From positions 224,001-288,000 of the IMG/VR virus record IMGVR_UViG_3300037247_001786: 64,000 nt of DNA; one strand, written 5' to 3'. The translations under genes and the position numbers were made by a program. The notes beneath the pieces were generated by a model. The model saw nothing but the letters and a program-made list of their open reading frames with translations, was not told the origin of the DNA and searched no databases. This DNA comes from a virus (lineage: Duplodnaviria > Caudoviricetes). Positions 2,455 through 23,309 of the stretch are shown here, in pieces. Positions within the stretch are counted from its first letter, which is position 1; every line of letters begins with the position of its first letter.

Positions 2455-3078
2455 CTATACTTTATCTTTTAGATATCTTGATGCTTGGAAGTGTTCTACT
2501 ATGGGGTCTTTACAGTAGTCCATTATATCAAATATCTTACAATATTCTGGTCCTAATTTTTGAATTTTCAATCCTGGTATGTTACTTTTATTGATTGTAT
2601 TTTGTAGATTTCTTTGATCACATATTCTGGCGACATATACCCCTTTTGCTCGGATAATATTCTTTCTATTTAGTTTGTGCCATATCTTAAAAAGATTTTT
2701 AATTTTATCATTATTCCTATAAAATATTGTTCCACTAAGCATAGTCGGATTTTTTTTATGCCATTTTCCGTTTCTACCTCTTATCTTATAATGAATAGAC
2801 ATATCTCCATCTATTTCTTTTAGAGGTATCTCTCTTTGTATTATACCGTCTGCATCTACATACATAAATAGTTCTGTATCTGGGTTTTTTTCCATAGAAT
2901 TAAGTAATAGTCTAGATTTGTATTTAGTATTTGCATCCCATGACCCTTGATTTTCTATCCCTTCAATGTAGGAGTCGTAACCAAATTTATCGATAGATTT
3001 TTTAAGTTTTTTTATTTCGTTTTCGTATCCTGTATCGATAGTGAAGAACGAGACAACTTTAAATTTATTTTTTTCCAT
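2455..3078 (-). CDS. GT-A fold glycosyltransferase-like (nucleotide-diphospho-sugar transferase)
   Basis: YVDAD DxD motif, LSGTIF, DQ motif, C-terminal HFQASR; paralog of 3065-3655. Confidence 0.65.
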   Translation of the reverse strand: MEKNKFKVVSFFTIDTGYENEIKKLKKSIDKFGYDSYIEGIENQGSWDANTKYKSRLLLNSMEKNPDTELFMYVDADGIIQREIPLKEIDGDMSIHYKIRGRNGKWHKKNPTMLSGTIFYRNNDKIKNLFKIWHKLNRKNIIRAKGVYVARICDQRNLQNTINKSNIPGLKIQKLGPEYCKIFDIMDYCKDPIVEHFQASRYLKDKV

Positions 3079-3655
3079 TTACTTGTCCTTTTAGTCTTCT
3101 TGACGCTTGATTGTGAGAAATTATAGGGTCTTTAATTCTTTTATGAGTTCCGCATTTTGATCCATTAATTTTGCAGTATTTGAGTGAGATCCTTTGTATC
3201 TTTATATTTTTATAGTTATTTTTAAGAACTGAATATAGGGTGTCTTGGTCATAAGTTTTTGGATTTTTTTGATTTATTTCTATCCACTCTTTCATAATAT
3301 TTTTCATCTTATCATTATTTTTAATAAATACTGTCCCGCTAAGTAGCCAACCTTTCTGTTTTCTTTGAGTTATAGTTTTGTGGCAGACAGCTATATCTCC
3401 TGATATATTATCTGTTGGTATTTTCTTATTTACGATAGCATCGGCGTCCAGGAATAGAAAATAATCTTCATCTGGATATTTTTTCATAGCATTTAGTATT
3501 AGATGAGGTTTGTATTTTGTATTTAAATCCCACGATCCCATATTATCTATTCCTTCTACATAGATATTGTGGTCAAATTTTTTGGCAGAAATTTTAAGTT
3601 TATCTATTTCTTTTTCATACCCAGTGTTAATAGTATAGAACGAAGTTATTATCAT
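3065..3655 (-). CDS. GT-A fold glycosyltransferase-like, paralog of 2455-3078
   Basis: FLDAD, LLSGTVF, YDQD, HNQASR; start moved to MIITSF (3655) because the longer ORF overlaps the divergent gene. Confidence 0.65.
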   Translation of the reverse strand: MIITSFYTINTGYEKEIDKLKISAKKFDHNIYVEGIDNMGSWDLNTKYKPHLILNAMKKYPDEDYFLFLDADAIVNKKIPTDNISGDIAVCHKTITQRKQKGWLLSGTVFIKNNDKMKNIMKEWIEINQKNPKTYDQDTLYSVLKNNYKNIKIQRISLKYCKINGSKCGTHKRIKDPIISHNQASRRLKGQVNGKK

Positions 3656-3659
3656 ACAC

Positions 3660-3684
3660 TTATATCGTCTTTTTGTCGATATAA
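3660..3684. promoter_or_regulatory. 8-bp inverted repeat containing GTCGATATA between divergent GT genes
   Basis: TTATATCG-9 nt-CGATATAA. Confidence 0.35.
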
Positions 3685-3704
3685 ATATAAAAGGAGAAAA
3701 TATT

Positions 3705-20694: not shown

Positions 20695-21374
20695 AAGAGA
20701 ACGGAGCGGATATAGATTCCGTTAATTATTTTAATGATAAGGTGGAGGTTAGAGGATATCAGAATTTTGATATTACGAAAGATGATATATCTGTACTAGA
20801 TAATAAAAGAAAATGGACTGTTACCTATGATAAATTTAATATTGTTAATTCTGCTATGAGTAGATTGGGAAATGATGTTAAGTCGTATATAGATATCGGT
20901 TCTAATCTCGGATTATATGTTTTTTTGGCAAGGATAAAATACGGATTAGTCTCTGTTGGTGTCGATTATAATTATGAATATATAGATGTCTGTGAAAAGA
21001 TTAATGATAAGTTCGGTTTCGGATGCGATTTTAATGTTAATTCTTTTAAGGAATTAGACATTAGGTATGATTGTGTTTCGTTGTTGGGGACTATCCATCA
21101 TTTGTACCATAGAACAGAAAGATTTGGCGAGCTAGGCCCTATTGTTAAGAAGATCGCCGATATTACTAAAAGATATTTAATTATTGAGTTCCCAACTATT
21201 AAAGATTCTAAGGCAAAAAAATGGGTAAATATGAAACATAGAGTAAAAAAAGAAGAATATAATTTAAATAATTTTATGAAGTATTGTGAGGAATATTTTA
21301 TAAATATAGAAAAACTTGGGGGAGTTATTCCTCAACGACCAATATTTTTAATGGAGAGAAAACCTAATGGGTAA
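20685..21374 (+). CDS. Class I SAM-dependent methyltransferase
   Basis: YIDIGSNLG motif I, VGVD, LGTIHHL, LIIEF. Confidence 0.7.
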   Translation: MHIEENGADIDSVNYFNDKVEVRGYQNFDITKDDISVLDNKRKWTVTYDKFNIVNSAMSRLGNDVKSYIDIGSNLGLYVFLARIKYGLVSVGVDYNYEYIDVCEKINDKFGFGCDFNVNSFKELDIRYDCVSLLGTIHHLYHRTERFGELGPIVKKIADITKRYLIIEFPTIKDSKAKKWVNMKHRVKKEEYNLNNFMKYCEEYFINIEKLGGVIPQRPIFLMERKPNG

Positions 21375-22338
21375 AACAGCATTGATAACAGGGATAAGTG
21401 GAATGGATGGAAGTCATTTATCAGATCTGCTATTAAGTAAAGGTTACGAGGTGTTCGGATTAGAAAGGAGGCTTTCAAAAAAAAACAGAACAAATCTGTC
21501 TCATGTAGAAAAGGATATAAATTTTTTATGTGGAGATATGACCGACCAGAATTCGCTTATAAGAGCCTTAAGGGATAGCGACCCAGATGAGGTTTATAAC
21601 TTAGCTGCACAGTCATTTGTAGGAGATAGTTGGAATATCCCGATACAAACATCAGATGTTACAGGTTTAGGCGTTCTAAGGATGCTCGAAGCCATTAGAG
21701 AATATGGTAAAGATATTAAATTCTACCAAGCTAGTTCCTCTGAAATGTTTGGTCGGATGAAAGATACTATTGCTAATGAAGAAACCGTTTTTTACCCTAG
21801 AAGTCCGTATGGGGTATCCAAATTGTATGGGCATTGGATAACCAAGAATTACAGAGAATCTTATAAGATGTTTAATTGTTCTGGTATATTATTTAATCAT
21901 GAATCTGAGAGAAGGGGATTAGAATTCGTAACTAGAAAAATTACTAATGGAATTGCTTTGATAAAATGCGGAAAAGCTGATAAGATATATCTCGGCAACT
22001 TAGAGGCAAAAAGAGACTGGGGATATGCCCCTGATTATGTAGAGGCTATGTGGTTGATGCTGCAGCAAAAAAAACCAGATGATTATGTCGTGGCTACTGG
22101 AAAATCTTTCTCTATCAAATACTTTTTACGAGAAGCTTTTAGTGTGGTAGGGATAACCGATTGGGAGGATTACGTTGGCATAGATGAAAGATTTATGCGT
22201 CCAGCGGAAGTAGATTGTTTAAGAGGAGACTATAGTAAGGCTAAAGAAAAATTAGGTTGGGAACCAAAAGTTAGTTTCAAGAAAATGGTCGAAATGATGG
22301 TTAAAAACGATGTCCTAATTGTTGAAAATAGGAGATAA
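21367..22338 (+). CDS. gmd: GDP-mannose 4,6-dehydratase
   Basis: ALITGISGMDGSHL, NLAAQSFV, YQASSSEMFG, PRSPYGVSK, GILFNHES, RDWG, RPAEVD. Confidence 0.95.
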   Translation: MGKTALITGISGMDGSHLSDLLLSKGYEVFGLERRLSKKNRTNLSHVEKDINFLCGDMTDQNSLIRALRDSDPDEVYNLAAQSFVGDSWNIPIQTSDVTGLGVLRMLEAIREYGKDIKFYQASSSEMFGRMKDTIANEETVFYPRSPYGVSKLYGHWITKNYRESYKMFNCSGILFNHESERRGLEFVTRKITNGIALIKCGKADKIYLGNLEAKRDWGYAPDYVEAMWLMLQQKKPDDYVVATGKSFSIKYFLREAFSVVGITDWEDYVGIDERFMRPAEVDCLRGDYSKAKEKLGWEPKVSFKKMVEMMVKNDVLIVENRR

Positions 22339-22340
22339 TT

Positions 22341-23309
22341 GTGAAACTCTTATTTTTAAGGGGTCAGGTTCCTCAGGATAGAGATCCTCGTCAAATAATG
22401 TTTGACAATATAGAAGACTGCGACGATATGTGGACACAGTTAGCATACGAATTGTCAAAGCAAGAAATGGGAGAGGTCTGGTATTGGAACGGGAAGAGAA
22501 AAGTTAGCTATGCTGATAATTTTATTGAAAGATGGTTGCCCAATTTTAAAATAACAAAATATGATTTTAAGCCAGATGTTATTTTTACTAGAGGTGGATT
22601 TAAAAGTTATGACCCAGTTCTTAAAAGAAATCCTCAAGCATTTAAAATATATTATGGTGCTGGTAGAAGATTTTATCCTAAGAAAATGTTTAGCGATTAT
22701 AACCTTATGCTCGTTGATACTCAAAAACAATTAAACAAAGTTAAAAAATTATTTCCTAATATTAAATCTGATTTAATAGTTAAGCCAGTTGCTGAAAATA
22801 TCTTTAAGCCCTCTCAAGAGCAAAATAAAAAATATGACATTATATTAGTTGGTAATTACAATCCTAGAGTAGATAAGGGTCACGACTTCGCATTTACTAG
22901 AATACCAAAACATTATAAAGTTATCTGTGCTGGTATCGTTCCCAAAAAAATTAGAAGAAAATATCTTCATATTAAATTCACTGGATGGATACCGAGAAGG
23001 GATGTCTCCTCTTTATACGCTCAATCAAAAATAGCAGTGATATGTTGTGGAACTATAGATTCTTGTCCGAGGGTGATTCCTGAAGCTATTGCTTGCAATT
23101 GTCCGATATTAGTATTAGATAGAATAAAGTTTTCTCATGAAAAATATATTTCGGATGAGACAGGATTGCTGACTAATGAACAAAATTTTAATAAAGATTT
23201 AGAAAAAACTGTAAAAGAGTATGAAAAATTTTCTCCGAATTCTTATTATAAAAAAAAATTATCGTTGCAAGTCTCATCTAATAAAATTTTAGAATCGATA
23301 AGGAGGTAA
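22341..23309 (+). CDS. GT-B (GT4-like) glycosyltransferase
   Basis: DSCPRVIPEAIACNCPIL C-terminal motif, FTGWI. Confidence 0.7.
   Translation: MKLLFLRGQVPQDRDPRQIMFDNIEDCDDMWTQLAYELSKQEMGEVWYWNGKRKVSYADNFIERWLPNFKITKYDFKPDVIFTRGGFKSYDPVLKRNPQAFKIYYGAGRRFYPKKMFSDYNLMLVDTQKQLNKVKKLFPNIKSDLIVKPVAENIFKPSQEQNKKYDIILVGNYNPRVDKGHDFAFTRIPKHYKVICAGIVPKKIRRKYLHIKFTGWIPRRDVSSLYAQSKIAVICCGTIDSCPRVIPEAIACNCPILVLDRIKFSHEKYISDETGLLTNEQNFNKDLEKTVKEYEKFSPNSYYKKKLSLQVSSNKILESIRR

Follow-up and report, generated by a model that had tools for sequence, protein, structure and literature searches.

A soluble, nonulosonic-acid-centred glycosylation island in a 461-kb phage genome: a candidate system for carrier-free glycosylation of phage proteins

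The 64,000-nucleotide stretch analysed here (the window) corresponds to bases 224,001-288,000 of the 460,978-bp virus record IMGVR_UViG_3300037247_001786 (Duplodnaviria; Caudoviricetes), and at window positions 2455-23309 it carries an island of genes for sugar activation, glycosyl transfer and glycan tailoring. The record is bounded by direct terminal repeats, has a CheckV completeness of 100%, a GC content of 34% and a coding density of about 93% (translation table 11), and its genes include those for a large terminase, portal and tail tube along with a clamp loader, a sliding clamp and RNA-repair enzymes; its terminal repeats and its packaging and virion genes place the island in a phage and not on a bacterial chromosome. 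Examination of the island reveals 25 open reading frames (ORFs), two of them on the minus strand, the other 23 overlapping or separated by gaps of at most 20 nt. Families were called by Pfam, NCBIfam and Atlas (profile and structure) searches, which count 11-12 glycosyltransferases (GTs), in agreement with the original prediction of about 25 consecutive genes with roughly a dozen such enzymes. The island is flanked by a deformylase and a radical SAM (S-adenosylmethionine) gene on one side and by RNA-repair and replication genes on the other. Glycan-related genes extend upstream of the window (genome 221,707-223,955), where two MptE/Maf-like ORFs and one GT29-like ORF are separated from the island by a block of small genes and the deformylase and radical SAM genes. 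These upstream genes belong functionally with the island, which brings its size to about 25-28 genes.

The core of the island is a predicted module for a nonulosonic (sialic-acid-like) acid (NulO). It includes a short-chain dehydrogenase/reductase (SDR) of the nucleotide-sugar dehydratase/epimerase type (14275..15243; PF16363 152.8 bits, with LegB at 110 bits, below its cut-off), a fusion of a CMP-sugar (cytidine monophosphate sugar) synthetase of the CTP_transf_3 family to a D-2-hydroxyacid dehydrogenase (15209..16882; PF02348 79.8, PF02826 161 and PseF 107 bits), and a 262-residue NeuB-family ulosonic acid synthase that lacks the SAF domain (17648..18436; Pfam 178.7, NCBIfam NeuB 167 and PseI 140 bits). 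The fusion enzyme is seen in both phage and bacterial loci and is split into two separate genes in many relatives. The hallmark of the module is a 370-residue protein with a GT-B fold (9701..10813), homologues of which occur in 34 IMG/VR loci. An AlphaFold2 (AF2) model built with an alignment of 21 homologues attained a mean confidence (pLDDT) of 92.6, and exhaustive structural comparison recovered the epimerase NeuC (5zlr) as its nearest fold (Z 22.7, root-mean-square deviation 3.6 Å over 321 residues), followed by other UDP-GlcNAc (uridine diphosphate N-acetylglucosamine) 2-epimerases at Z 20-21.5, with ordinary GT-B transferases reaching at most Z 19.4. Foldseek places the protein in the same epimerase/TagF neighbourhood, and its neighbours in Atlas include clusters labelled TagF, KpsS and polysialyltransferase; its own Atlas clusters are close to 100% viral. 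Given that the minimal cassettes described below contain no epimerase other than a homologue of this protein, and given its NeuC-like fold, it is probably a hydrolysing epimerase/hydrolase that supplies the otherwise missing NeuC/LegG-type step, freeing the hexosamine for NeuB; it could alternatively act as a transferase.

Further nucleotide-sugar enzymes accompany the core. A WecB-like UDP-GlcNAc 2-epimerase of the non-hydrolysing type (11751..12761; Epimerase_2 176.5 bits; wecB 173.5 versus NeuC 47 bits) is followed by a left-handed beta-helix (LbH) sugar N/O-acetyltransferase (12751..13308; Hexapep 87 bits; NeuD/PglB/VioB 84.9 bits, below cut-off) and a Gfo/Idh/MocA sugar oxidoreductase (13329..14264; PF01408 61 and PF02894 48 bits). 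Near the far end lies a GDP-mannose (guanosine diphosphate mannose) 4,6-dehydratase, Gmd (21367..22338; Pfam 427.8 bits), the sole island gene to score above an NCBIfam equivalog cut-off (gmd 417.4 bits, cut-off 415). The originally predicted complement of nucleotide-sugar synthesis genes is thereby borne out for the epimerase, oxidoreductase, acetyltransferase, SDR, CMP-transferase, NeuB and Gmd. From their families, these enzymes are predicted to yield three or more types of activated sugar. One is a CMP-linked ulosonic acid resembling sialic acid (made by the NeuC-fold protein, SDR, SAF-less NeuB and fusion enzyme), another comprises derivatives of UDP-N-acetylhexosamine (by the WecB-like epimerase, acetyltransferase and Gfo oxidoreductase), and a third, via Gmd, is a GDP-6-deoxyhexose precursor. 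When checked step by step, the CMP-NulO pathway shows a synthase, CMP-synthetase, SDR, LbH acetyltransferase and NeuC-fold protein, and is incomplete in that the aminotransferase is missing. No DegT-type aminotransferase was found in the whole genome, and the sugar is therefore not a pseudaminic (Pse) or legionaminic (Leg) acid made by the standard route; it may be a neuraminic acid (Neu)- or Kdn-like sugar or a deoxy variant, perhaps modified further by the fused dehydrogenase.

The glycosyltransferases are diverse. At the left edge, on the minus strand, are a GT-A nucleotide-diphospho-sugar transferase (3065..3655; Nucleotid_trans/GT34-like, PF03407 27.6 and PF05637 25.4 bits) and a GT-A-like protein without a Pfam match that is its clear sequence paralogue (2455..3078). 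The plus-strand run opens with a weakly GT2-like GT-A protein (3705..4385; sub-threshold Pfam GT64 and MPG synthase matches, N-terminal IVIPTRNR) and a GT2/FKRP-stem-like transferase (4387..5235; FKRP_N 22.2 and Glycos_transf_2 20.8 bits, both below cut-off). These are succeeded by a GT9 (heptosyltransferase-family) protein (5219..6007; PF01075 36.2 bits, cut-off 22) with homologues in the related loci L019 and L022, whose match spans just the C-terminal half of the profile and whose similarity to WaaF (1psw) is weak (E=0.014), and by a GT4 enzyme (6004..6924; PF00534 36 bits, L019 homologue 344 bits). Further along occur a weak but conserved GT2-like protein (8149..8802; PF00535 16.7 bits; L019 179 bits, L022 112-192 bits), a GT4-like protein (8787..9716; Glyco_trans_1_4 24.6 bits; L018/L019 homologues 320-351 bits), a canonical GT2 that belongs to the core and is present in most related loci (19332..19973; PF00535 62.2 bits) and a terminal GT4 (22341..23309; PF00534 40.5 bits; L019 homologue 400 bits). 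A second core transferase (10813..11769) represents a phage-specific GT2-like GT-A family that was recognized through Atlas only (feature score 0.99; template-modelling (TM) score 0.84 to viral clusters and 0.63-0.69 to GT2 clusters) and is found in nearly all related loci.

Interspersed among these are tailoring enzymes, for which the original prediction had named two kinases, two methyltransferases and a sulfotransferase. Both methyltransferases stand, one of them weak: a SAM-dependent enzyme at 7551..8165 (TehB 23.2 bits, cut-off 20.4; Methyltransf_25) and another at 20685..21374 (Methyltransf_11 18 bits, below cut-off). Only one kinase fold is recovered, a protein-kinase-fold protein at 19981..20694 (Pfam Pkinase E=0.048; Atlas TM score 0.77 to Pkinase clusters), which on structural grounds is a candidate sugar or protein kinase. 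A lipopolysaccharide (LPS) kinase was also considered for this gene and rejected, as sequence searches matched no solved LPS kinase and returned non-significant protein-kinase loops instead. The sulfotransferase is not confirmed: the 299-residue protein at 18424..19323 matches Sulfotransfer_3 at E=0.14, its single-sequence AF2 model has a pLDDT of 34, and no APS (adenosine phosphosulfate) kinase was found in the genome; its homologues in L008 and L022 score 388 and 282 bits, and relatives do bear clear sulfotransferases. The two remaining island products are a 207-residue protein without a family at E<=10 (6926..7549) and a conserved 254-residue protein (16872..17636; DUF1647 18.5 bits; L018/L019 homologues 168-213 bits). 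The adjoining radical SAM protein (1606..2454, plus strand; Radical_SAM 46 bits, with Fer4_12) has a homologue directly upstream of the island in L019, a 149-kb relative (155-1081; phmmer 167 bits), and no test made here marks it as a glycan enzyme.

The upstream genes supply candidates for the last step of such a pathway. The two MptE/DUF115 (Maf-like) ORFs match PF01973 with 33.1 and 25.0 bits (E=6e-8 and 2e-5; cut-off 34.6), and no solved Maf protein was matched by sequence. The GT29-like ORF scores 34.4 bits against PF00777 (cut-off 23) over profile positions 55-118 only, the region of sialylmotif L, and its only PDB matches are to ST3Gal-I (E=9e-4). By family resemblance, the Maf-like and GT29-like proteins are candidate transferases of the CMP-activated NulO.

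A striking aspect of the island is the solubility of its products. A Kyte-Doolittle hydropathy scan of the 25 ORFs gave three hits, all of them artefacts: an apparent helix in ORF 3065-3802 falls in a TTG-extended N-terminus, the paralogue placing the true start at the ATG at 3655, and the other two correspond to a Rossmann strand and an LbH strand. As originally predicted, then, no credible membrane helix remains. The accompanying claim that the island lacks a Wzx, a Wzy, an ABC exporter and an initiating phosphotransferase can be extended to the complete 461-kb genome, in which translocases and polymerases encoded elsewhere were also looked for and not found. Neither PF02397 nor PF00953 matched anywhere in this genome at E<=1 (positive controls were matched), PF00005 gave only matches below cut-off that are sub-threshold P-loops, and none of the 689 ORFs encodes a protein with six or more predicted hydrophobic helices; for flippases and polymerases the own-genome negative rests on this hydropathy criterion in place of PF01943/PF04932. 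The two largest membrane proteins were considered as glycan transporters and rejected, one being a coiled-coil/XhlA-like protein and the other a GluR0-type channel. The latter (genome 334,444-335,589) is a ligand-gated ion channel in which SBP_bac_3 is split by an Ion_trans_2 pore. The absence is general: searches of 12 further whole viral records that carry the core, six with a completeness of at least 90%, did not recover PF02397, PF01943 or PF01061, and no large polytopic protein is encoded among the 910 ORFs flanking the 34 IMG/VR loci. On a contig of a bacterial metagenome-assembled genome (L056; GCA_964610305.1), by contrast, Wzm/Wzt lie directly upstream of a GT2, a NeuB with SAF, a methyltransferase and a fusion enzyme 43% identical to that of the phage. 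Comparison of this bacterial locus with the phage loci thus indicates that the phage versions have consistently shed the exporter. Such a loss fits carrier-free use but does not prove it, and the phage could borrow the carrier and exporters of its host.

The upstream regions of the genome were found to contain three outstanding motif classes, and the island falls under the one that we term class II. A promoter-like box, TTTGTCGATATAAATA (3672..3687, plus strand), lies 17 nt before the first plus-strand island gene. The exact 16-mer occurs twice in the 461 kb (0.002 copies expected), the second copy heading an operon (genome 54,010-58,948) for a 618-residue protein that matched no family, a 335-residue protein in which 45 residues form a poly-serine tract, and the large terminase. 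A class II position weight matrix was trained on 14 sites other than that of the island, among them the sites ahead of the terminase operon, of the volactin operon and of the operon of giant genes after the tail-tube gene. Of about 922,000 positions scored, the matrix places the island site 8th, or 3rd when only sites outside the training set are counted, and a further site that it selects lies 37 nt ahead of the second Maf-like gene. The deformylase/radical SAM operon and the replication and repair genes downstream of the island have a different box, AAGTGAWW-N-TATAAT. Within the island a generic scan showed no excess of sigma-70-like sites or terminators, which makes a single long transcript plausible. 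Taken together, the motif data suggest that the island operon is co-expressed late with packaging and virion genes. The genome also encodes a sigma-70-family factor with regions 2, 3 and 4 (genome 47,262-48,107), itself preceded by a class I box, and this factor likely reads the class II promoters. In a 341-kb relative (G001) a box, GTAAATATAAT, is present on both strands of the divergent gap of its island and before several large genes; these genes could not be classified and the box was not counted towards the promoter argument.

To determine the phyletic spread of the system, searches with the fusion enzyme and the 370-residue protein recovered five ENA/Logan contigs of 32-387 kb, and the 21-homologue alignment recovered 34 IMG/VR loci on contigs of 16-351 kb; every flanking ORF was mapped back onto the present genome. 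A NulO core of 7-9 genes recurs in 39 other uncultured viral loci. It consists of the GT2-like protein (10813), SDR, 2-hydroxyacid dehydrogenase, CMP-transferase, NeuB, GT2 (19332) and 370-residue protein, often joined by epimerase, Gfo, GT29-like or Maf-like genes. The other transferases and tailoring genes vary from phage to phage (L007, L008, L018-L020 and the 34 IMG/VR loci), with relatives adding Sulfotransfer_1/2, CysNC/CysD, DegT, FkbM/TylF methyltransferases and a carbamoyltransferase. Synteny of the whole island, raised as a check by the original prediction, therefore holds in part: L019 keeps the upstream radical SAM gene and much of the gene order, and elsewhere the core recurs while the transferases change. 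In the complete phages G003 and G004 (160 and 178 kb) just 16-18 ORFs are held in common with the present genome, and half of these are the core, which scores 200-290 bits where RecA or the clamp loader reach 30-80 bits; the 341-kb phage G001 (GC 42%) shows the same pattern, the core being best conserved. Since it is conserved far above RecA and the clamp loader in otherwise unrelated phages, the core is evidently a module that moves from one phage lineage to another. In Atlas its families are viral almost without exception. Among 50,697 GenBank phage records, tblastn gave no match to the 370-residue protein and just three weak matches to NeuB, and neither the island nor one downstream block had a megablast match in GenBank phages. 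Single-protein searches for related loci with the fusion enzyme or a 669-residue neighbour returned none, and in the literature that we searched neither this cassette nor a phage NulO pathway was described. Separately, the close relative L007 encodes (15727-20792) an HMGL-like aldolase fused to a second CMP-transferase, a HAD phosphatase and CysNC/CysD, a set that suggests a second ulosonic acid and sulfation through synthesis of PAPS (phosphoadenosine phosphosulfate) in that phage.

Possible acceptors can be sought among the other genes of the phage. The genome encodes two poly-serine proteins (genome 714-2066 and 56046-57053), and the distantly related, island-bearing huge phage G001 likewise has two (128,470-132,489 on the minus strand and 286,150-288,309) with the same SSSSSSV-like rhythm. 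Other GT genes lie in or beside the block of giant genes after the tail-tube gene (139.6, 175.0, 178.8 and 179.4 kb), and further ones in a second operon near 452 kb. On these observations we propose, with confidence evenly balanced for and against, that the island is a phage-owned cytoplasmic glycan factory which serves late, carrier-free glycosylation of phage proteins. Under this proposal the plus-strand operon of about 20 kb would be transcribed from its phage-specific class II promoter, probably via the phage sigma factor, alongside the operons for packaging and virion genes; the glycan would be built directly on serine or threonine residues of phage proteins in the cytoplasm, with neither lipid carrier nor export; poly-serine proteins and virion fibres would be the candidate acceptors; and particles would exit the cell already coated, the conserved NulO core combined with variable transferases giving different coats to different phages. 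We favour phage proteins as the target because the exporters have been shed, because of the promoter class, the portability of the core and its viral-only families, and because of the adjoining Maf-like and GT29-like genes, the GTs of the virion block, the poly-serine proteins and the precedents discussed below. A more specific formulation is offered tentatively, and we consider it somewhat doubtful as a whole: that a mobile, phage-specific cassette of 7-9 genes found in unrelated lineages (NeuC-fold protein, SDR, D-2-hydroxyacid dehydrogenase, CMP-transferase, SAF-less NeuB and two GT2s) makes an undescribed sialic-acid-like sugar, and that in huge phages it has grown into a 25-28-gene factory which, without a lipid carrier, attaches complex glycans capped by a NulO and perhaps bearing methyl or phosphate groups straight to virion proteins, for example poly-serine fibres.

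Several observations weigh against glycosylation of phage proteins. The island lies within the replication and nucleotide-metabolism region, between RecA/UvrD and the clamp loader and outside the virion module; class II boxes also precede some non-structural genes, among them that for a Holliday-junction resolvase and one located between those for the clamp loader and the clamp; the Maf-like ORFs score under the Pfam cut-off; the complete phages G003 and G004 have no poly-serine protein; and any particular acceptor protein is a candidate only. The genes beside the core in the smaller phages encode an exonuclease, a carbamoyltransferase, GTs and an amidase and are not structural; PHROGs named few structural genes, and the idea that these phages keep the core next to virion genes was accordingly not borne out. 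Soluble GTs are moreover the rule in lipid-linked pathways too, and the inference of the original prediction from a lack of membrane genes to a cytoplasmic acceptor does not stand by itself, sound as its premise is: assembly of lipooligosaccharide (LOS) or the LPS core on lipid A uses soluble or peripheral enzymes only, with export by host MsbA/Lpt, and does without a dedicated phosphotransferase, flippase or polymerase. The island could accordingly serve to remodel the host envelope, its enzymes extending the host lipid A-core or a host-primed undecaprenyl carrier at the inner membrane face, with export by host MsbA/Lpt, Wzx/Wzy or ABC systems, for instance to block superinfection or to keep progeny off debris. 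The families are indeed those of O-antigen, LOS and capsule synthesis (a GT9 above cut-off, GT2/GT4, Gmd and the NulO module), homologues in relatives are labelled Lept_O_ant_chp1 and TviD_N, a bacterial homologue of the fusion enzyme sits within an ABC-transporter polysaccharide locus, hydropathy is blind to peripheral membrane binding, and a hypothesis of the same kind was advanced for the 24 'LPS' genes of cyanophage P-SSM2 (PMC1079782). We regard this explanation as the main rival and a serious one, though less likely than glycosylation of phage proteins and on the whole rather unlikely: the operon shares its promoter class with packaging and virion genes and not with the early-type genes next to it; the core crosses lineages with few shared genes, which would be harder were it tied to the acceptor or exporter of one host; its families are almost purely viral; and not one membrane component is seen in 13 phage records. 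Nor was any gene for a Kdo transferase or for lipid A seen, though no search was aimed at these (including WaaA/GT30).

DNA, named in the original prediction as another possible acceptor, receives little support. On that account the sugars would be attached to hydroxymethylated pyrimidines of the phage DNA and help it evade restriction, and a few features of the genome could be accommodated. A divergent ThyA-family protein (window 55718-56656; Pfam 42 bits, 22 bits to solved thymidylate synthases), which keeps the catalytic cysteine and the uracil-specifying asparagine, is a possible deoxyuridylate (dUMP) hydroxymethylase, and together with a T4 gp1-like deoxynucleoside monophosphate (dNMP) kinase (window 34964-35638) it hints at a possible hydroxymethyl-pyrimidine pathway; the island is located among replication genes; phage GTs that glycosylate DNA are known (Pyle 2024, as cited in PMC12619734), and the jumbo-like phage YerA41 has a modification of about 1 kDa on thymidine (PMC9023294). 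However, at least 11 GTs, a NulO pathway, methylation and a kinase go far beyond any known DNA glycan; there is no match to PF09198/PF11440, the T4-type alpha- and beta-glucosyltransferases, families that the control genomes were unable to show; the promoter class is that of packaging and not of replication genes; and G003 and G004 carry the core with no ThyA-like homologue among the ORFs that they share with this genome. We consider DNA modification highly improbable. Distinctly unlikely, though less so, is some other target, such as a soluble or secreted oligosaccharide, a glycolipid, or non-virion phage proteins or host cytoplasmic proteins (for example in host takeover). The protein-kinase-fold gene and the conserved genes at 16872 and 18424 leave room for this without indicating anything specific, whereas 25 genes conserved in many phages with hypervariable transferases resemble the evolution of surface glycans more.

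Large sugar clusters in lytic phages (since 2005), glycosylation of phage virions (2023) and autonomous glycosylation by giant viruses are already known. As new elements, the present analysis defines a portable NulO core, finds that this core has consistently lost the exporter that lies beside a bacterial counterpart, assigns a confident fold to the hallmark protein and, in the 461-kb phage, links the island by its promoter to the operon for packaging and a poly-serine protein. If the island does glycosylate phage proteins, it would be the bacterial-virus counterpart of the mimivirus and chlorovirus glycan coat, achieved without a lipid carrier. Phages that coat themselves would affect current views of virion stability, adsorption, and escape from grazers and from recognition by bacteria or animals, and the sugar genes booked as viral 'auxiliary metabolic' genes in metagenomes, usually as host-envelope functions, would need rereading. 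Should the enzymes act on host LPS instead, the island would be the largest known surface-conversion module of a lytic phage. The portable core provides a small, concrete gene set for expression and assay, and the existence of bacterial loci with Wzm/Wzt beside phage loci without them makes carrier-free assembly testable.

The wider surroundings of the island hold several other genes of interest. An RNA-repair set is distributed over the window (24135-25022, 44125-46491, 57586-58620 and 58871-59785) and comprises a RlaP-family nucleotidyltransferase, a CCA-adding enzyme-like protein, an RNA ligase with an HNH-like N-terminus and a polynucleotide kinase. Upstream, an Apyc1-like (anti-Pycsar) protein of the metallo-beta-lactamase fold (genome 218,554-219,357; 64 bits, cut-off 50) follows a class I promoter. 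A fusion of CYTH and DUF488 domains (genome 214,140-215,012) and a cREC/receiver-domain protein (genome 220,254-220,919), both encoded between the repair genes and the island, may have to do with nucleotide signalling.

Set against known systems, the island stands apart from O-antigen and capsule loci that depend on undecaprenyl phosphate: those encode an initiating transferase together with a flippase and polymerase or an ABC exporter, and the island has neither. The bacterial polysaccharide locus on L056 resembles it in gene style (GT2, NeuB, methyltransferase and fusion enzyme, then SDRs) but has Wzm/Wzt (ABC2_membrane, ABC_tran), a NeuB with SAF and DegT aminotransferases, all three of which this phage lacks. 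Closer in outward form are the LOS loci of Campylobacter, Neisseria and Haemophilus, which are likewise all-soluble, with GT9, GT2/GT4, neuB/neuA and sialyltransferases and without Wzx, Wzy or an initiating phosphotransferase; that of C. jejuni contains neuBCA, a sialyltransferase and waaC/F. The combination of a GT9-family enzyme with soluble outer-core GTs, which typifies such loci (for C. coli see 10.1101/254235), is present in the island. LOS loci act, however, on lipid A-Kdo in cells that have WaaA, MsbA and Lpt, whereas the phage has no polytopic transporter and its promoter evidence points to late co-expression with virion genes. The marine cyanophage P-SSM2 has 24 epimerase, transferase and synthase genes in large clusters that a close relative does not possess (Sullivan et al. 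2005, PMC1079782), and a function of these 'LPS' clusters in host LPS was put forward as a hypothesis only; both are large sugar clusters of lytic phages, with no sequence relationship found by tblastn against GenBank phages.

Carrier-free systems offer the nearer parallels. Flagellar Maf proteins are about 600 residues long, and the Maf-like ORFs of the phage, at 222-245 residues and below the Pfam cut-off, differ from them; flagellin itself is not expected in a phage. In the flagellin islands (Maf/PseE/FlmG with Pse, Leg or Neu pathways; PMC11339370, PMC7591256) serine and threonine residues are O-glycosylated in the cytoplasm with CMP-nonulosonic acids, and DUF115/Maf genes lie beside NeuB and a CMP-synthetase; the phage island differs in having no sugar aminotransferase and many extra GTs. 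Among viruses, chlorovirus clusters include Gmd. The autonomous glycosylation clusters of giant viruses, such as those for the PBCV-1 capsid and the Megavirinae fibrils (PMC10117803, PMC8456856, PMC9614988, PMC4691112), likewise combine soluble nucleotide-sugar synthesis, many GTs and methyltransferases, and like the island they are clade-specific, variable, directed to bacterial-like rare sugars and free of machinery of the dolichol- or undecaprenyl-phosphate type. By gene content the island shares their signature of an own nucleotide-sugar synthesis and soluble GTs with lineage-variable membership. The giant viruses have eukaryotic hosts and chemically proven protein acceptors, whereas the present system has a bacterial host and is known from genes alone, and by none of the tests made here is the NulO core common to the two. 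Finally, the cassettes that glycosylate the virions of the mycobacteriophages Che8, Corndog and Myrna (Freeman et al. 2023, as cited in PMC12619734) use soluble phage GTs, with or without a methyltransferase, for cytoplasmic glycosylation of structural proteins, as we propose for the island. These cassettes consist of 2-4 genes beside capsid or tail genes and draw on host nucleotide sugars; the island, with its GTs placed away from the virion module and not beside capsid or tail genes, comprises about 25-28 genes and encodes the synthesis of its own sugars, a NulO among them.

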